From the NCBI GenBank assembly GCA_000004985.1, contig GG739104.1: a stretch of 7,801 bases of DNA, one strand, 5' to 3'. This DNA comes from Naegleria gruberi. Taxonomy: Eukaryota. Position 1 is the first letter of the stretch, and each line of letters opens with the position of its first letter. The notes under the pieces are model-generated. The model had not been told where the DNA came from. It did not search any database and worked only from the letters and a program-made list of their open reading frames with translations. The position numbers and the translations under genes were made by a program. This document shows positions 1-7,801 of the stretch, in pieces.

Positions 1-2
1 AA

Positions 3-317
3 TTGAAACGAAAAAGAATGGAAGATAGTATTGATAATGTTTTAGATGCATTAGAACAAGAAGAAAAGAAACAAAAGAGATCTTACAGTAAGAGTAAGAG
101 TTCACTATTACCTTCCAAATCAAGTAGTTCCAACAATTTTGATTTATCAAATAGTGGCGCTAGTGGTAGTGGTAGTGGTGGTGGTAGTGGATTTGTTAAA
201 GCAAGTACACTCCTTCCCACAACATCATCATATCGATCATCAGAGATGAGTAATCGATCCAAGACAACAACAAATAGACCAAAGAGCAATTTGGAACGAT
301 TCATGTCAAAGAAGTAA
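3..317 (+). CDS. 3' terminal part of a protein-coding gene whose 5' end lies upstream of the window. The C-terminal tail is basic (KRKR), Ser-rich and SG-repeat-rich. Stop TAA at 315-317.
   Basis: Frame 3 is open from the window edge to TAA 315-317. Codons are dictyostelid-typical (ggt Gly, gaa, tta, caa, tca). The (agtggt)n block encodes SGSGSGGGSG. The antisense ORF 83..325 is a low-complexity shadow. Confidence 0.5.
   Translation: MKRKRMEDSIDNVLDALEQEEKKQKRSYSKSKSSLLPSKSSSSNNFDLSNSGASGSGSGGGSGFVKASTLLPTTSSYRSSEMSNRSKTTTNRPKSNLERFMSKK
153..191 (+). repeat. Imperfect hexanucleotide (agtggt)n microsatellite inside the CDS, encoding an SG repeat.
   Basis: agtggcgctagtggtagtggtagtggtggtggtagtgga read directly. 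Confidence 0.8.
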
Positions 318-893
318 TATAACATTGAGTTTCAATTAATTTGCAAGTTGTTGTTTTGAACAATTTCACAAATGAACCATCAATACACATCCACTTTCAC
401 AGTGTGACACTTTCTTATTAACATTTAAATGGAAAGTAAACAGGAAGGATGGAATTACTTTAAGGCAACTCTCTCTAAAATAGTCACATACAATTACTCT
501 ATTCAAACATCTATCAATTTTTTAATTACAATGTCTATGTCAATAATTTGCATCCCGCCAATATTGGATGGATGTCAACGAATGGTGTCCACAATAGTAT
601 GAATTTAAAAAAGTCCATTTTTAATCAAATTCGATTCATTCTCCATTTTCATTGCATTTTGCATTATTCTGTAATGATCACTCAATTTTCAACTCTCAAA
701 CGATGACATCTCTAAGCCTTCATTTCATATAAAATTACATAACAAGCATGCTGTGTCCTACTAATGAGAAGCAATGATGAAACATTTCATTTATACAAGA
801 AGAAAAATGTCGTCATCTCTCCTCCATGTAATCAATACTAATCATTTTCAGCAGCTGCACAACAATGAAAACAATCAACAAGAAGCGAGTTGT

Positions 894-938
894 ACTAATA
901 GTAATAGTAGTAGTAGTACTAATAATGGTAGTAGTAGT
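894..938 (+). repeat. agt/aat/act trinucleotide repeat block (Ser/Asn/Thr codons).
   Basis: actaatagtaatagtagtagtagtactaataatggtagtagtagt read directly. Confidence 0.75.
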
Positions 939-1259
939 TATTAAACTGTTACATCAATGAGTGGTGGCGGTGCCAGTATGGAATCTATTAAATTGTATCC
1001 TCATTTGATATCATGTAATGATGCTTCCTCGTTCAATAATGAACATTTAGTGACTACATTCTTCCAAAATCTCTTCAAATAAGAAAGATGATACCCTCAA
1101 TTATCATTAAAATTAAAATTATTATATTTACTTGTAAATGTCAGTAGTATTCGCACTGTGTGATATGAATTTTTAGTTTTATGTTTCCATTGACACAAAA
1201 TTATCTAGTTCGTCACACAAATCAGATGTTTAATTTCAGTACAAATGAGTATCAACATT

Positions 1260-1484
1260 TCAAACCACAACATAAATTTTATTCAATACTTTAAATTTAT
1301 AAATTGAGGAATGATTTTGTGTTACCTTTAAGTGGCCAGTTTTAAACCATGTAATTTCAAATTCACCAGTTTCTTTTTGTTCAGTTTCCACTGTATCATT
1401 AAAACCTAATTGAATTGGAACGAGAGTATCAGTCTTTCTTTCACCAGTTTCACCTTCAGAATAATGAACTTTCAATGAAATTTG
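1260..1484 (-). CDS. Candidate coding exon of a spliced minus-strand gene (hypothetical protein). Translation: ...QISLKVHYSEGETGERKTDTLVPIQLGFNDTVETEQKETGEFEITWFKTGHLK(VTQNHSSIYKFKVLNKIYVVV*). Boundaries are uncertain.
   Basis: The minus frame is open 1260..1484 with no ATG (the track 'M' is a TTG codon). An AG lies immediately upstream (plus 1485-1486, cgaatag|CAA). Codon usage is strongly dictyostelid-like (ggt gaa act ggt gaa aga aag act gat act cca att caa tta ggt). A possible GTAAC donor follows ...CAC TTA AAG (plus ~1321-1326). Otherwise the frame runs to TGA at 1260-1262. The overlapping plus ORF 1475..1705 uses atypical codons (cga, ggg, gga, gag, atc). Confidence 0.3.
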   Translation of the reverse strand, partial: QISLKVHYSEGETGERKTDTLVPIQLGFNDTVETEQKETGEFEITWFKTGHLKVTQNHSSIYKFKVLNKIYVVV

Positions 1485-1963
1485 CTATTCGAGTTAATGG
1501 ATTTTCATGGCAATGGCATAATGAGGGATTTTGGAGAATGAAAGTTATTGAAAATATTGAGAAAATAGATGGTAAAATTGTTAGTGTGAAACCTAGTAAC
1601 AGTGGAGGGAAAACTCCATCCTTTATCGTTGGATCAGAGACATTCAATCCAACATACTTTCAAGAGAAGAGATCAAAGGCTGTTTATTATTGTGTCAAGA
1701 TTTGAACCGTGATTAGGTCTTGTACAAAAATTAGCTTTTGTTAAAAAATTTTGGCTTGAAAATTACCTCCTTTTAAAACAATATTTACGAGAGATTACTT
1801 TGATAACACCATATAATCCGTATATACAGCAGGTTTGAATGGATATTTAGTCTGTATTTATGGATTTTCAGAGGTTTTGTTCAACGACAAGTGAAGCAAA
1901 AGGATCGGTAATCTAAACATTCCATCATTATTAAAACACATTGCCAGTCAGTTTTTCGGACAG

Positions 1964-1986
1964 TCTCTAGATTAATAATCTAGAGA
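1964..1986. promoter_or_regulatory. Perfect 23-bp palindrome tctctagatta-a-taatctagaga (11-bp arms, 1-nt centre), ~160-180 bp upstream of the 2143 ATG. Candidate dimeric transcription-factor site or hairpin.
   Basis: The reverse complement of tctctagatta equals taatctagaga exactly. It lies in the non-coding region between a possible minus-strand gene and the 2143 gene. Confidence 0.3.
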
Positions 1987-2094
1987 ATATATTATTTTAC
2001 TATCCGAAATATCCAAACCAATTCAAAAGAAACGAAATTTCACCTCCAGCCAGCAGTACTTCTTTCTGGACTAACGATTTTCTTGTAGTTGTAA

Positions 2095-2142
2095 CAACAT
2101 TTCACAATTTTTGAAAAAAAAAACAATTTAAAAAAAATCAAA
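2095..2142 (+). promoter_or_regulatory. A-rich 5' leader and translation-initiation context (gaaaaaaaaaacaatttaaaaaaaatcaaaATG) of the downstream CDS.
   Basis: There is an in-frame stop at 2092-2094 and no other ATG before 2143. Homopolymeric A runs directly before the ATG are typical of dictyostelid start contexts. Confidence 0.4.
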
Positions 2143-3469
2143 ATGCCAAAACGCAAGAAACAAACTAAACGCAAAGAAACTTCTTCTCAACCCTCCTCCT
2201 CCTCCACACCTGCCACTAAAAAAGTAAAAACTGAGAAATTAAAAGCTCAACCACAAGCTCCTTCCGATAATCCCATCAGTGAAGAACCAATCGTTGTTCA
2301 TGACGATGATCCTGAATTATCCATCACAAATCATGAAAATATTTCCACTGCCGATGCCAAATATGAGCTCATTAGAACTCCTTTAAGCAATGGAGATGAA
2401 ACCTCTGATGACCTTGGATTGGAAATGATTGAACAACATCATTTACAATCAACTTTTAACATTTCCAAATATCTACCTAAGGAAAAGGGACATGCTATGA
2501 AAATTTATTGTATTGATTTGGGTTCTAGTTTTACAAAAGGTAACAAGTTTCAAATTGAACAAGGTAAAAGGGTGAGAGCATCTGTTTTAAAATTTGGTCA
2601 TCGAGAAAAGAGTCAATTTCTACCAACACGTACATTTTACAATTCAATTACAGGTGAAATTCAAATGGGAAGTGAATTGAAAGGTGAGAAATGGGAAGAA
2701 TTGGAAAATGTAAAAAAGATATTCATGGTCAGTGAATTGTTAGAAATTAGTCTCAATTCAAAGAAGAAATTAAGAGTTTCCAATGTTATTTACTTGATGA
2801 TTAAGGATTTAATTACTCAATTATTGACCACTAAAAAGGATGATCAAGCTTATTTAGAGGGAGTTACAGCTTGGATATTTACATGTCCAACAGGTACCTC
2901 TGAATATACTAAATTAATATTTAGAAATTGCATTTATCATGCCTATAATAAGTTAAAAATTAATATTGGTGATGATCATCCAATTACCATTGAAGATATT
3001 TATATTATGGAAGAGTATGCATTATTACAATATTTTGCTAATAATCAACAAAGATTATCGACCATGTTTGTTGATTTGGGTCATCTCACTTTGGATGTTG
3101 TTGTAATGGAATTAATACAGGGTGAATATATGGTAACATTTAAGAATGGAGAAACTTGTGGAATGTCAATCATTCATCAACTATTACACAGTAAGGGAAT
3201 GGATGCAAATGCCATTATGAAAGATTTATTTGAAAATTATTATGATTCTGATGAGTTACCACCATCTTTGAAGGCAATTGAAGAGGAAATTAATGAGAAA
3301 TTGAAATTGATTACCAAACCGCTATGTATGATGATTTTACAAAAACAAGCTGATTGTATTCACTTCTCTGGTGCAATTACAAGAGTTGCCTATTTTCAAA
3401 GGAAACTCAGAGAATATGTTAGCCAAGAACGGTTACAACATATTAAGAAGGAACTCACTCCCTACATGA
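2143..3469 (+). CDS. 5' part (442 codons, no intron needed) of a divergent Hsp70-like / actin-fold (ASKHA) ATPase-domain protein. It has a ~110-aa basic, Ser/Pro-rich N-terminal extension (MPKRKKQTKRKE...KKVKTEKLK, NLS-like). It is truncated by the assembly gap.
   Basis: Continuous frame-1 ORF from ATG 2143. Three motifs appear in Hsp70 order and spacing. (1) Phosphate-1-like IDLGSSFTKG at ~2512-2541 (cf. Hsp70 IDLGTTYSCV), followed by KFGHREKSQFLPTRTFYNS...GSELKGEK (cf. NDQGNRTTPSYVAF...GDAAKNQ). (2) Phosphate-2-like FVDLGHLTLDVVV at ~3070-3105 (cf. IFDLGGGTFDVSI). (3) Adenosine-motif-like CIHFSGAITRVAYFQRKL at ~3355-3408 (cf. IVLVGGSTRIPKIQKLL). Confidence 0.7.
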
Positions 3470-6436
3470 NNNNNNNNNNNNNNNNNNNNNNNNNNNNNNN
3501 NNNNNNNNNNNNNNNNNNNNNNNNNNNNNNNNNNNNNNNNNNNNNNNNNNNNNNNNNNNNNNNNNNNNNNNNNNNNNNNNNNNNNNNNNNNNNNNNNNNN
3601 NNNNNNNNNNNNNNNNNNNNNNNNNNNNNNNNNNNNNNNNNNNNNNNNNNNNNNNNNNNNNNNNNNNNNNNNNNNNNNNNNNNNNNNNNNNNNNNNNNNN
3701 NNNNNNNNNNNNNNNNNNNNNNNNNNNNNNNNNNNNNNNNNNNNNNNNNNNNNNNNNNNNNNNNNNNNNNNNNNNNNNNNNNNNNNNNNNNNNNNNNNNN
3801 NNNNNNNNNNNNNNNNNNNNNNNNNNNNNNNNNNNNNNNNNNNNNNNNNNNNNNNNNNNNNNNNNNNNNNNNNNNNNNNNNNNNNNNNNNNNNNNNNNNN
3901 NNNNNNNNNNNNNNNNNNNNNNNNNNNNNNNNNNNNNNNNNNNNNNNNNNNNNNNNNNNNNNNNNNNNNNNNNNNNNNNNNNNNNNNNNNNNNNNNNNNN
4001 NNNNNNNNNNNNNNNNNNNNNNNNNNNNNNNNNNNNNNNNNNNNNNNNNNNNNNNNNNNNNNNNNNNNNNNNNNNNNNNNNNNNNNNNNNNNNNNNNNNN
4101 NNNNNNNNNNNNNNNNNNNNNNNNNNNNNNNNNNNNNNNNNNNNNNNNNNNNNNNNNNNNNNNNNNNNNNNNNNNNNNNNNNNNNNNNNNNNNNNNNNNN
4201 NNNNNNNNNNNNNNNNNNNNNNNNNNNNNNNNNNNNNNNNNNNNNNNNNNNNNNNNNNNNNNNNNNNNNNNNNNNNNNNNNNNNNNNNNNNNNNNNNNNN
4301 NNNNNNNNNNNNNNNNNNNNNNNNNNNNNNNNNNNNNNNNNNNNNNNNNNNNNNNNNNNNNNNNNNNNNNNNNNNNNNNNNNNNNNNNNNNNNNNNNNNN
4401 NNNNNNNNNNNNNNNNNNNNNNNNNNNNNNNNNNNNNNNNNNNNNNNNNNNNNNNNNNNNNNNNNNNNNNNNNNNNNNNNNNNNNNNNNNNNNNNNNNNN
4501 NNNNNNNNNNNNNNNNNNNNNNNNNNNNNNNNNNNNNNNNNNNNNNNNNNNNNNNNNNNNNNNNNNNNNNNNNNNNNNNNNNNNNNNNNNNNNNNNNNNN
4601 NNNNNNNNNNNNNNNNNNNNNNNNNNNNNNNNNNNNNNNNNNNNNNNNNNNNNNNNNNNNNNNNNNNNNNNNNNNNNNNNNNNNNNNNNNNNNNNNNNNN
4701 NNNNNNNNNNNNNNNNNNNNNNNNNNNNNNNNNNNNNNNNNNNNNNNNNNNNNNNNNNNNNNNNNNNNNNNNNNNNNNNNNNNNNNNNNNNNNNNNNNNN
4801 NNNNNNNNNNNNNNNNNNNNNNNNNNNNNNNNNNNNNNNNNNNNNNNNNNNNNNNNNNNNNNNNNNNNNNNNNNNNNNNNNNNNNNNNNNNNNNNNNNNN
4901 NNNNNNNNNNNNNNNNNNNNNNNNNNNNNNNNNNNNNNNNNNNNNNNNNNNNNNNNNNNNNNNNNNNNNNNNNNNNNNNNNNNNNNNNNNNNNNNNNNNN
5001 NNNNNNNNNNNNNNNNNNNNNNNNNNNNNNNNNNNNNNNNNNNNNNNNNNNNNNNNNNNNNNNNNNNNNNNNNNNNNNNNNNNNNNNNNNNNNNNNNNNN
5101 NNNNNNNNNNNNNNNNNNNNNNNNNNNNNNNNNNNNNNNNNNNNNNNNNNNNNNNNNNNNNNNNNNNNNNNNNNNNNNNNNNNNNNNNNNNNNNNNNNNN
5201 NNNNNNNNNNNNNNNNNNNNNNNNNNNNNNNNNNNNNNNNNNNNNNNNNNNNNNNNNNNNNNNNNNNNNNNNNNNNNNNNNNNNNNNNNNNNNNNNNNNN
5301 NNNNNNNNNNNNNNNNNNNNNNNNNNNNNNNNNNNNNNNNNNNNNNNNNNNNNNNNNNNNNNNNNNNNNNNNNNNNNNNNNNNNNNNNNNNNNNNNNNNN
5401 NNNNNNNNNNNNNNNNNNNNNNNNNNNNNNNNNNNNNNNNNNNNNNNNNNNNNNNNNNNNNNNNNNNNNNNNNNNNNNNNNNNNNNNNNNNNNNNNNNNN
5501 NNNNNNNNNNNNNNNNNNNNNNNNNNNNNNNNNNNNNNNNNNNNNNNNNNNNNNNNNNNNNNNNNNNNNNNNNNNNNNNNNNNNNNNNNNNNNNNNNNNN
5601 NNNNNNNNNNNNNNNNNNNNNNNNNNNNNNNNNNNNNNNNNNNNNNNNNNNNNNNNNNNNNNNNNNNNNNNNNNNNNNNNNNNNNNNNNNNNNNNNNNNN
5701 NNNNNNNNNNNNNNNNNNNNNNNNNNNNNNNNNNNNNNNNNNNNNNNNNNNNNNNNNNNNNNNNNNNNNNNNNNNNNNNNNNNNNNNNNNNNNNNNNNNN
5801 NNNNNNNNNNNNNNNNNNNNNNNNNNNNNNNNNNNNNNNNNNNNNNNNNNNNNNNNNNNNNNNNNNNNNNNNNNNNNNNNNNNNNNNNNNNNNNNNNNNN
5901 NNNNNNNNNNNNNNNNNNNNNNNNNNNNNNNNNNNNNNNNNNNNNNNNNNNNNNNNNNNNNNNNNNNNNNNNNNNNNNNNNNNNNNNNNNNNNNNNNNNN
6001 NNNNNNNNNNNNNNNNNNNNNNNNNNNNNNNNNNNNNNNNNNNNNNNNNNNNNNNNNNNNNNNNNNNNNNNNNNNNNNNNNNNNNNNNNNNNNNNNNNNN
6101 NNNNNNNNNNNNNNNNNNNNNNNNNNNNNNNNNNNNNNNNNNNNNNNNNNNNNNNNNNNNNNNNNNNNNNNNNNNNNNNNNNNNNNNNNNNNNNNNNNNN
6201 NNNNNNNNNNNNNNNNNNNNNNNNNNNNNNNNNNNNNNNNNNNNNNNNNNNNNNNNNNNNNNNNNNNNNNNNNNNNNNNNNNNNNNNNNNNNNNNNNNNN
6301 NNNNNNNNNNNNNNNNNNNNNNNNNNNNNNNNNNNNNNNNNNNNNNNNNNNNNNNNNNNNNNNNNNNNNNNNNNNNNNNNNNNNNNNNNNNNNNNNNNNN
6401 NNNNNNNNNNNNNNNNNNNNNNNNNNNNNNNNNNNN
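3470..6436. other. Assembly/scaffold gap: 2967 consecutive N.
   Basis: Uninterrupted run of n read directly. The flanking ORFs in the track that cross it are all X. Confidence 0.97.
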
Positions 6437-6437
6437 A

Positions 6438-7801
6438 ATTAAAATTATGAATCAAAAATCAAATGAAATTGGAATACAAGAATCATTACATTATTNTTCT
6501 ATACAAAATTCTAATAATTCTAATAATATAAATGGAAATAATTCTAATAATAATTCTAATATATTACAATTATATTTAACTTTTTATTTTTGTGGACATT
6601 TTTGTCTAGTATTTGAAGAATTAGGAGAAACATTATTAAATTACATACAAAGATATCAACCATATACAATTAAAATGGAAATATTAAAGAAAATAACATT
6701 ACAATTAATAATAGGATTATTAATATTAAAACAAAATAATATAATTCATACAGATTTAAAACCTGAAAATATTTTAATGAAAAAATTAAATTCATCAAAA
6801 TTAAAAATTGCTGATTTTGGAAATGCAATTAATTATTTAGATAAATATCATTTAAATTTAAATATAGGAAGACAATTACAAACTTTATTTTATAGATCAC
6901 CTGAAGTTATATTTGGAAATTCAATAATTGATTTTCAAATGGATATGTGGTCAATTGGATGTATAATTGTTGAATGTTTTATTGGTAATCCTTTATTTAA
7001 TGCAAATAATTTAAATCAATTAATTAATCAAATGTTAAATTTACTTGGTCCTTTACCTTTAAATTTATTTAAAAATAATAATTTAAATAATTTAAATAAT
7101 AGTAATAATTTAAATAATAGTAATAGTAATAGTAGTAATGTAACTAGTAATAATTTAAATAATATAAATAATATAAATAATAATATTTATGAAAATAGTA
7201 ACAAATCAAGTTATTCATTTAGTAAGAAACATTTAAAATTAAGTAAATTAATGAGATTAAGATCAAATGATTATCAATTTGTATCATTTATTACTTCTAT
7301 ATTAGAATATGATCCTAAAAAAAGATTAACACCTGAAAAGGCATTATTTCATCCTTTTTTAAATTCTGTATTTCCATTTTCATTAAATATGATTTACAAT
7401 ATTAATAATAATTTAAATAATAATTTAAATAATAATAATAATTTAAATAATTCTATTGATTCTCAAACTATTATTATTAACAATAATAGACAAGAAGAAG
7501 AAGAGCAACAACAATTAATTTATGATAATAGTTTAATAACATCTCATAATAATAATAGTAATATTGGCAATGTTGGTAATAATATTAATCATGTGAATAT
7601 TACAATGTCATCATTAGCTCCAAAACATTCATTATCATATCAACAACAACAACCATCAATAACGACGACGAATCAAACACAACTGCAGCAGCAACAACAA
7701 CAACAACCCTATCATACAATGTTCTCTTCTTCAACAAGTTCAAGTGATTTGAGTTCTCCAACTCATAACAGACAACAACAACAATATATTCACCTCATCA
7801 A
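6438..7801 (+). CDS. Internal/3' part of a DYRK-like (CMGC group) Ser/Thr protein kinase. It covers catalytic subdomains IV-XI, with Asn-rich insertions and a Q/N/S-rich C-terminal tail. The 5' end is lost in the gap and the 3' end runs off the window.
   Basis: Frame 3 is open from the gap edge to the window end with no stop (checked codon by codon). Motifs in order: IKIMNQ (subdomain IV); HFCLVFEELGETLLNYI (V; cf. DYRK HLCLVFELLSYNLYDLL); IIHTDLKPENIL at 6741-6776 (VIb); KIADFGNA at 6804-6827 (VII); LFYRSPEV at 6885-6908 (VIII; cf. DYRK RFYRSPEV); DMWSIGCIIVE (IX); GNPLF (X); EYDPKKRLTPEKALFHPF at 7305-7358 (XI). Confidence 0.85.
   Translation, partial: MKIMNQKSNEIGIQESLHYXSIQNSNNSNNINGNNSNNNSNILQLYLTFYFCGHFCLVFEELGETLLNYIQRYQPYTIKMEILKKITLQLIIGLLILKQNNIIHTDLKPENILMKKLNSSKLKIADFGNAINYLDKYHLNLNIGRQLQTLFYRSPEVIFGNSIIDFQMDMWSIGCIIVECFIGNPLFNANNLNQLINQMLNLLGPLPLNLFKNNNLNNLNNSNNLNNSNSNSSNVTSNNLNNINNINNNIYENSNKSSYSFSKKHLKLSKLMRLRSNDYQFVSFITSILEYDPKKRLTPEKALFHPFLNSVFPFSLNMIYNINNNLNNNLNNNNNLNNSIDSQTIIINNNRQEEEEQQQLIYDNSLITSHNNNSNIGNVGNNINHVNITMSSLAPKHSLSYQQQQPSITTTNQTQLQQQQQQQPYHTMFSSSTSSSDLSSPTHNRQQQQYIHLI
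6507..6560 (+). repeat. Coding (aattctaataat)-type repeat encoding an NSNN run, inserted between kinase subdomains IV and V.
   Basis: aattctaataattctaataatataaatggaaataattctaataataattctaat read directly. Confidence 0.75.
7074..7184 (+). repeat. Coding Asn-rich low-complexity block built from aataatttaaat / aataatagt units (NNLNNLNNSNNLNNSNSNSSN...). It sits where CMGC kinases carry their insert between subdomains X and XI.
   Basis: Direct reading. The 12-mer aataatttaaat recurs several times. Confidence 0.8.
7401..7451 (+). repeat. Second block of the same aataatttaaat (NNLN) unit, just after the kinase domain.
   Basis: attaataataatttaaataataatttaaataataataataatttaaataat read directly. Confidence 0.8.
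7686..7706 (+). repeat. Poly-Gln tract (cagcag(caa)5, Q7). Shorter (caa)4 tracts lie at 7641-7652 and 7773-7784.
   Basis: Direct reading, in frame with the kinase CDS. Confidence 0.85.

Follow-up and report, generated by a model that had tools for sequence, protein, structure and literature searches.

A truncated CMGC kinase gene in Naegleria-like DNA and its probable place in an uncharacterized family beside DYRK, CLK, PRP4 and SRPK

The stretch of DNA analysed here, 7801 nucleotides (nt) long and called the window throughout, is AT-rich and consists of a left block (1–3469, about 30% GC), a run of N (3470–6436) and a block (6437–7801) that holds part of a protein kinase gene. We give a probability of roughly three in four to the identification of this last block as the 3' three-quarters of a gene without introns, encoding a Ser/Thr kinase of the CMGC group from a Naegleria-like heterolobosean. 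Judged by sequence comparison, its product, truncated and so far unannotated, is best read as a new member of a CMGC family, itself uncharacterized, beside DYRK, CLK, PRP4 and SRPK; we refer to it as the DFGN-type family after the start of its activation segment. The gap and the parts of the kinase gene are as follows.

3470–6436, no strand: assembly gap of 2967 N; by alignment to full-length relatives the kinase Gly-rich loop and everything N-terminal to it fall here, and the gap also hides the upstream gene's 3' part
6438–7801, plus strand: partial kinase open reading frame (ORF) of 454 codons, open at both ends, covering the kinase domain from its VAIK Lys through subdomain XI, followed by a low-complexity C-terminal tail
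6441–6443, plus strand: catalytic Lys of subdomain II (VAIK equivalent; the 'IK' in IKIMN), aligned with Naegleria fowleri VAIKVMNQK; invariant column K2 of the family alignment A1
6480–6482, plus strand: alphaC Glu of subdomain III (the Glu in IGIQES); invariant column E15 of A1, within helix 6–18 of the AlphaFold2 (AF2) model
6507–6560, plus strand: Asn-rich insert 1 (NSNNSNNINGNNSNNNSN), which makes the alphaC-beta4 loop about 11 amino acids (aa) longer than that of relatives, with (TAATTC)n-type tandem repeats
6597–6623, plus strand: beta5/hinge HFCLVFEEL of subdomain V; H36, C38, V40 and E42 are family-invariant
6747–6776, plus strand: catalytic loop HTDLKPENIL with Asp, Lys and Asn intact; HTD as against HAD in 59 of 62 family members and HCD in DYRKs
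6813–6827, plus strand: DFGNA, at the start of the activation segment
6813–6905, plus strand: activation segment DFGNAINYLDKYHLNLNIGRQLQTLFYRSPE, 31 aa, which starts with DFGN and lacks YxY; Leu stands at Tyr(-7) and also at DYRK R325, and Gln at the DYRK phosphotyrosine (pTyr) equivalent
6888–6908, plus strand: FYRSPEV; R153 of FYRSPE is family-invariant
6942–6962, plus strand: DMWSIGC of subdomain IX; D151, W153 and S154 do not vary across the family
7041–7058, plus strand: LLGPLP at the end of alphaG, before the CMGC insert; family-conserved (LLGPxP) and like CLK ILGPLP
7074–7184, plus strand: Asn-rich insert 2, 37 aa, within the CMGC insert that separates alphaG from alphaH; compared with N. 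fowleri it brings a net gain of about 28 aa
7305–7379, plus strand: subdomain XI and family C-terminal motif EYDPKKRLTPEKALFHPFLNSVFPF, from the alignment
7380–7801, plus strand: post-kinase low-complexity tail with an Asn/Leu tract (7398–7451), an acidic/Gln patch and an S/T/Q-rich end

The frame that starts at 6438 on the plus strand is a genuine gene, far beyond what chance would produce. None of its 454 codons is a stop, while each of the five other frames holds 28–86; with about 10% of random codons being stops, base composition gives a probability of about 2e-21 for such an open frame, and among 2000 shuffles not one was open. Pfam Pkinase matches the frame with E=1.2e-37 over profile positions 46–263 of 263, and the ORF runs on past the end of the window at nt 7801. 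An earlier, sequence-only reading of this DNA had quoted the frame and a set of kinase motifs, all of which lie where it had placed them. It had also allowed that introns might have been read through. This is not borne out because the kinase genes of N. fowleri and Willaertia are single-exon and collinear with the window frame, and introns hidden in the Asn tracts appear disfavoured since these tracts keep the frame without a stop in DNA with a GC content of about 10%, and since the relatives lack introns. A single ambiguous base at 6496 (codon TNT) leaves residue 20 as X; the codon is likely TAT or TTT, since the relatives carry Tyr or Phe at this position.

Less of the kinase is missing than was thought. 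The sequence-only reading had placed subdomains I–III in the gap, yet the fragment start IKIMNQKSNEIGIQES aligns with N. fowleri VAIKVMNQKANEIGIQES and hence begins at the VAIK lysine. Therefore the Lys of subdomain II and the Glu of subdomain III are present, and the gap holds the Gly-rich loop, with subdomain I as the one subdomain missing, together with the N-terminal region. That the Pfam match sets in at profile position 46 reflects a divergent alphaC region and not an absent alphaC. Besides Lys and alphaC Glu, the fragment retains the HxD Asp, the Asn, DFG, SPE, the subdomain IX Asp and the subdomain XI Arg. In the alignment with 11 other family members, 41 positions do not vary among those members, and the fragment matches 39 of them, on a level with its three closest relatives (41/43, 41/42 and 41/41); it departs by the change from HAD to HTD and by one Phe replaced by Ile. 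Because the catalytic residues are intact, 39 of 41 invariants are kept and the frame is long and open, we infer that the gene is under purifying selection and that its product is probably an active kinase.

A first word-indexed homologue search for relatives of this kinase returned nothing above 42% identity, probably because low-complexity words swamped its pre-filter, and a metagenome scan delivered only distant kinases with 28–33% identity. An exhaustive HMMER search gave three clear relatives at 52–54% identity (E 8.5e-75 to 5e-71): N. fowleri FDP41_004568 / XP_044561382.1 (801 aa), Willaertia magna ABK040_009545 (597 aa) and a protein on a Naegleria-like contig of a JGI metagenome. In pairwise comparison the window protein shares 50–53.5% identity with these three, which are 57–66% identical among themselves. 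The low-complexity tail has a counterpart in N. fowleri, S/T/P-rich and in the same place. Beyond the kinase domain, the three heterolobosean relatives (P0125–P0127, at L001 10001–12406, L002 6001–7794 and L003 5745–7625) carry a coiled-coil-like stretch, QQKQTI..L.IQ, and a C-terminal zinc-ribbon-like motif, CEKC…KCKKCKHVF; in the window gene the corresponding part would fall past nt 7801.

These proteins belong to a wider set with a common signature: a DFGN[A/S] start, a segment of 29–31 residues ending in ...[LVI]Q[T/S]xxYR[A/S]PE with a residue other than Arg at +2, LLGPxP, and HPF..FPF. All of these features are present in the window. The Tyr that most members keep at position -7 is Leu there. 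Members were retrieved from at least four eukaryotic supergroups. They include Heterolobosea (Naegleria, Willaertia), Rhizaria (Plasmodiophora, with PBRA_000841, as well as Paulinella and Nonionella), the glaucophyte Gloeochaete, the ichthyosporean Chromosphaera, the Glomeromycotina Funneliformis and Diversispora, and the invertebrates Oscarella, Xenia, Strigamia, Ridgeia, Potamilus, Acanthaster (LOC110980534) and Amphiura, while a Phytophthora protein with a longer loop (P0044) is a possible oomycete member. No vertebrate, Dikarya or land-plant member was among the sequences retrieved, a sampling that was not meant as a proof of absence. Members from animals are very long (1000–2000 aa), and several share an acidic ending, …EE(V/M)(L/M)LL (retrieved examples are P0143, P0150, P0164 and P0178).

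Members are annotated solely as 'hypothetical', 'uncharacterized' or 'protein kinase domain-containing', and none bears a functional name. In the literature that we covered, which did not extend to KinBase and subscription journals, we found no paper that names the family or deals with the Naegleria kinome or a 'DFGNA' motif. Extra 'DYRK-like' kinases in excavates, possibly of unknown subfamilies, have been described (Han et al., 2012; PMC3250476). The Dictyostelium kinome paper lists a CMGC family 'Dicty1', which could not be linked to the DFGN-type family.

It was the activation segment that had drawn attention to this gene, and three observations made on it hold: DFG is followed by Asn-Ala where DYRKs have Ser-Ser; the segment is longer than that of DYRKs, with 31 aa compared with 25 aa in DYRK1A and DYRK2; and YxY is absent, the position of DYRK1A Y321 being Gln when the segments are anchored on IQS/LQT. 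For comparison across the family we collected segments with the pattern D[FL][GS]N...Q[TS]xxYR[AS]PE, which yielded 62 distinct segments from 73 retrieved proteins, and numbered positions from the P+1 Gln. Segment length is 31 aa in 42 of the 62 and 29 aa in 18, and a DFGN start runs throughout the family, as does, in nearly all members (59/62), the HAD catalytic loop that is HTD in the window. At position +2, which corresponds to DYRK1A R325, Arg occurs in none of the 62; Leu (45, and also in the window), Pro (8), Met (4), Val (3) and Ile (2) are found instead. At position -2, which under gapless anchoring corresponds to DYRK1A pTyr321, 41 of 62 have Glu and the window has Gln. Position -7 is Tyr in 55 of 62 segments, whereas the window has Leu and the three heterolobosean relatives (N. 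fowleri, metagenomic Naegleria and Willaertia) have Ser. In an alternative MAFFT alignment a 'YY' of the family pairs with the DYRK YxY, with a 4-residue insertion after it; in neither alignment does the window have the Tyr.

Two further claims on the segment did not survive this comparison. The tyrosines of NY and KY had been offered as substitutes for YxY, but neither is conserved: the Tyr of KY is found in the window sequence only, that of NY is replaced by Phe, Cys, His or Asn elsewhere in the family, and in N. fowleri the stretch from DFG to the P+1 Gln is free of Tyr altogether. Nor is the loop lineage-specific, as had been proposed, since the DFGN start, the loop of 29–31 aa and the missing YxY recur in the 62 distinct segments across eukaryotes. 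By this comparison, the oddities of the activation segment are to be read as family traits.

Where the family stands among CMGC kinases is a separate question. By its Pkinase domain, its CMGC nearest relatives, its CMGC insert and the Arg conserved in the P+1 motif xYRxPE, the window kinase belongs to the CMGC group. Of the 60 sequence matches listed from the PDB, the best 57 are DYRK, PRP4, CLK, HIPK or SRPK and the last three are CDK4/6, which are also CMGC. Scores within this neighbourhood are nearly tied. With the fragment as query, phmmer gave DYRK3 110.9 bits, PRP4 108.9, DYRK1A about 107, DYRK2 103, CLK1 98.6, HIPK3 95.9 and Sky1 92.2; a profile of 12 family sequences gave DYRK2 238 bits, DYRK3 232, CLK1 228, DYRK1A 227, PRP4 226, HIPK2 200 and Sky1 184. 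Foldseek with the AF2 model placed PRPF4B, DYRK2, CLK3, CLK1 and DYRK1A level at E of about 1e-15, with PRPF4B on top, and the top 50 matches were DYRK, CLK or PRP4 without exception.

Neighbour-joining (NJ) trees with 200 bootstraps were calculated from 43 kinase domains. Family members made up 23 of these; the others were sequences named DYRK1, DYRK2, DYRK4, Pom1, CLK or AFC at their source, plus six human references, for which a check against PDB chains gave gapless matches at about 2.3 bits per residue. CDK2, ERK2 and GSK3B were the outgroups. The family including the window was monophyletic in 188–189 of 200 bootstraps (94%), and within it the heterolobosean clade with the window kinase was recovered in 199–200. 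DYRK1 and DYRK2 formed a clade of their own (154–168/200), which joined the family in at most two replicates (1–2/200). The family appeared, weakly, as sister to CLK plus SRPK (101–128/200), and PRP4 grouped with it in 17–18/200. A phylogeny of the catalytic domain had been called for as a check on the DYRK assignment. Run in this form, it keeps the domain within CMGC yet apart from the canonical DYRK clade, in a separate family, and with the limited sampling of an NJ analysis its deep position is not fixed.

The kinase had been called clearly DYRK-like. As far as this means the CMGC group and the neighbourhood of DYRK, CLK and PRP4, the description stands; membership in DYRK does not follow, and given HTD and DFGNA, the tied scores and folds, and the tree, the kinase is not demonstrably a DYRK. 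One may still ask if it could be a true but divergent DYRK-family kinase that autophosphorylates a loop Tyr through NY or KY. The likeness is greatest to class 2 DYRKs (DYRK2/3/4, Pom1): they share a CMGC fold with CMGC insert and the identical P+1 motif FYRSPE, DYRK3 (fragment) and DYRK2 (profile) are the nominal best PDB matches, and some family members carry an acidic-Gly-aromatic motif upstream of the domain. Moreover, the loop Tyr that most members outside Heterolobosea keep at position -7 makes Tyr autophosphorylation somewhere in the family plausible. The motif, however, does not discriminate. A DH-like D..G.[FY]x(9-14)R[YF] precedes the domain in 14 of 35 family members (in none of the three heterolobosean ones, and the corresponding region of the window is gap), but it is found in 41 of 47 CLKs and 79 of 109 DYRKs, and was dropped as a DYRK discriminator because it is just as common in CLKs. 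The window further differs from DYRKs in the lack of activation-loop YxY and of the HCD Cys, in DFGN in place of DFGSS or DFGSA, in a segment longer by 6 aa, in Leu for the pTyr-binding Arg (R325 in DYRK1A numbering), whose equivalent is Arg in no family member, and in its failure to cluster with DYRK1 and DYRK2; its own loop tyrosines are unconserved even in its three closest relatives. We thus consider such a divergent DYRK unlikely and retain the reading of a separate DFGN-type family.

Comparison with the other neighbours gives a similarly mixed picture. The window shares its catalytic loop HTDLKPENIL with CLK/LAMMER kinases (CLK1–4, plant AFC, Kns1), its LLGPLP resembles CLK ILGPLP, both do without a required activation-loop Tyr, the NJ trees weakly support a sister relation that includes SRPK (50–64%), and CLK1 scores within 10 bits of DYRK2. 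In contrast, the CLK signature EHLAMMERILG is not conserved in the window (NQLINQMLNLLG; alphaG reads NQLINQMLNLLGPLP), the CLK-specific pre-DFG insertion is lacking, and the rest of the family has HAD (59/62) and not HTD. With SRPK (SRPK1/2, Sky1) the alignment shows a common D[FL]GNA start, ...IQT... in the activation segment and an HTD loop. However, no large spacer splits the lobes of the window kinase, which has only 12 residues from HTDLKPENIL to DFG; Sky1 reaches 184 bits where others reach about 230; and the family P+1 motif is YRAPE/YRSPE while that of SRPK is YRSLE. PRP4 (PRPF4B) is the top Foldseek and second-best phmmer match and resembles the family in its HAD loop and overall CMGC-insert length, but has DFGSA and a TPY loop and grouped with the family in few replicates.

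What do these features suggest for regulation? That it should differ from the classical DYRK scheme was anticipated by the sequence-only reading, and this is upheld: without YxY, Tyr autophosphorylation at that site is not applicable. Because the pTyr site is Gln, one of the two Arg that hold pTyr in DYRK1A is Leu, and the loop Tyr of the family is Leu as well, a one-off, co-translational Tyr autophosphorylation of the DYRK type would be very unlikely in the window kinase. CLK and SRPK kinases adopt an active conformation without activation-loop phosphorylation, and SRPKs need no phosphorylatable loop residue for activity. With HTD and GNA/IQT as features common to the window and these kinases, the window kinase may more likely be constitutively shaped, as in CLK and SRPK, or be controlled by parts of the protein other than the loop, such as the unseen N-terminus or a C-terminal region that in the relatives contains the coiled coil and CxxC...CxxC. 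By this analogy a CLK/SRPK-like mode without DYRK-type loop Tyr activation might apply, a step for which we see the chances as evenly balanced.

Apart from the family traits, the window copy has two peculiarities of its own, namely two disordered Asn-rich loop expansions and the AT-rich island in which it lies. The presence of two Asn-rich tracts had been noticed before, but insert 1 was assigned to subdomains IV/V, while the alignment places it between subdomains III and IV, in the alphaC-beta4 loop. Insert 2 does lie in the CMGC-insert position; it does not, however, replace a conserved element, as had been claimed, but is a net expansion within the CMGC insert, a region (7059–7260) that is partly low-complexity. 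Over residues 1–310 the AF2 model has a mean predicted local distance difference test (pLDDT) score of 84.9, with dips at insert 1 (65), in the activation loop (77–80) and at residues 211–260 with insert 2 (48–59). The model thus predicts a kinase fold that is normal apart from the two inserts, which would form disordered loops at its surface. Beneath both lie tandem AAT-type repeats, and the Asn tracts are probably products of slippage in extremely AT-rich DNA that led to loop expansions; they would be tolerated additions and not new functional modules. Similar AAT-based Asn tracts in surface loops of conserved domains, in very AT-rich DNA, occur in Plasmodium falciparum proteins (background in PMC3749963), with the difference that the AT-richness here is not genome-wide but confined to an island, the genome having about 30–33% GC.

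The island is sharply defined. Over codons 1–380 of the kinase ORF the GC content at third codon positions (GC3) is 0.00–0.10 (about 0.05 overall), GC is 0.10–0.22 over 6437–7580, and 42 of the 44 Leu codons of the kinase domain are TTA. From about nt 7580, that is over the last 60 codons or so, GC is 0.33–0.37 and GC3 0.20–0.25. GC3 elsewhere is 0.25 in the neighbouring left gene, 0.30 in the N. fowleri kinase, 0.40 in that of the metagenomic Naegleria and 0.20 in that of Willaertia, and in the relatives it fits their own surroundings. The island adjoins the N gap and may be the cause of failed assembly there. In the literature we found nothing specific on AT-rich islands in Naegleria.

A contrast of this kind could mean that the gene is a decaying or non-functional paralogue: a duplicate in an AT-rich region, under relaxed constraint, that lost its regulatory loop residue. 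Besides GC3, the position of the window kinase in the tree would fit, as it branches outside Willaertia plus Naegleria in 197 of 200 bootstraps despite its N. gruberi-like neighbour. In the same direction point the loss of Tyr/Ser(-7), the change of HAD to HTD and the window-specific replacements, of which 14 run toward FYMINK (AT-coded) residues and 3 away from them. However, Dayhoff-6 recoding lowers the support for this basal placement from 91% to 69%. Because of this drop and the 14:3 excess of AT-ward replacements, the basal placement may be a compositional artefact, and paralogy would not be required to account for it. A frame that stays open for 454 codons where one random codon in ten is a stop, all catalytic residues intact, and family-invariant residues kept on par with the relatives further speak against decay, and we regard a decaying paralogue as highly improbable.

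Alternatively, the sequence to the right of the gap might have been joined to the left block by a scaffolding or assembly error and derive from another locus or from a more AT-rich heterolobosean. The sharp composition contrast falls across the gap, the left gene is without synteny to the N. fowleri kinase locus (L001), nothing in which is related to it, and the window kinase is not nested within Naegleria in the tree. Yet the last 200 nt or so of the ORF return to host-like composition, so that the island ends within contiguous sequence; the layout of kinase, linker and S/T/Q-rich tail is that of the N. fowleri protein; and the clade is firmly heterolobosean. A chimera is in our view quite improbable, and even if there were one the identity of the kinase would be unaffected. 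The 16% GC and the Asn tracts had also raised the possibility of a contaminant (Plasmodium, Dictyostelium) or a giant-virus insertion; this was ruled out by the exhaustive HMMER search and the tree, which lead to cellular Naegleria/Willaertia genes.

A more far-reaching reading, to which we give somewhat less than even odds, is one in which an ancient, undescribed CMGC family, possibly as old as the last eukaryotic common ancestor and none of DYRK, CLK, SRPK, PRP4 or HIPK, dispensed with Tyr(-7) in the Naegleria lineage, with the present copy lying in an AT island. Several points weigh against our main identification. The family may already have been named in KinBase or the subscription literature. 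The trees are distance-based, and HIPK, PRP4 and SRPK are represented by one human sequence each, so that the deep placement (CLK/SRPK sister or DYRK) is not settled, while DYRK2 is nominally first in the PDB profile search. Catalytic competence is deduced from conserved residues alone, and the Gly-rich loop of the N-lobe lies unseen within the gap. Finally, a codon bias as extreme as this one (GC3 0.05) has no explanation so far and could point to an unusual, possibly relaxed, evolution.

The main feature of the left block is as follows.

2143–3468, plus strand: partial ORF of 442 aa that runs into the gap, without Pfam or PDB match

This upstream ORF matches only two N. gruberi 'predicted proteins' (P0121 and P0124) and two ENA proteins. 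It is 37% identical to P0121 (711 aa) over its whole length and 96% identical to P0124 over the last 43 aa, which assigns the window to N. gruberi or to one of its very near relatives. Because of two amino-acid differences it is not the gene behind P0124, but an allele, a paralogue or a sequence from another strain. By eye it shows Hsp70/actin-like motifs (IDLGSSFTKG ... VDLGHLTLDV), and its full-length relatives end in CxxC...CxxC. At 3–317 on the plus strand lies the 3' end of another ORF with a Ser/Gly/Lys-rich C-terminus (…SGASGSGSGGGSG…) and no Pfam match, which probably begins upstream of the window. Between the two, 320–2140 (about 1.8 kb, about 30% GC) is free of long ORFs, tRNAs and Rfam matches; short overlapping ORFs occur on both strands at 1260–1705. 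This is a long intergenic distance relative to the N. fowleri and Willaertia loci. The N. fowleri locus (L001) and that of the JGI metagenome 3300002220 (L003) are syntenic with each other, with cellulase/GH5 and lactate/malate dehydrogenase genes upstream of the kinase.

The window itself carries little weight, as it holds a truncated, unannotated kinase gene whose oddities are mostly explained, and its AT-rich island, with a GC3 of 0.05 against about 30% GC for the genome and next to a gap, is a curiosity of genome biology. The loop flagged as unusual, in turn, marks what appears to be a coherent kinase family across several supergroups, placed between DYRK and CLK/SRPK and without the tyrosine that defines DYRKs. 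Since N. fowleri is a lethal pathogen and the family has no vertebrate member among the matches, it may be of some interest as a target. How kinases of the DFGN type are switched on is the question that follows from it, and an answer would fill a gap in the map of CMGC kinases.

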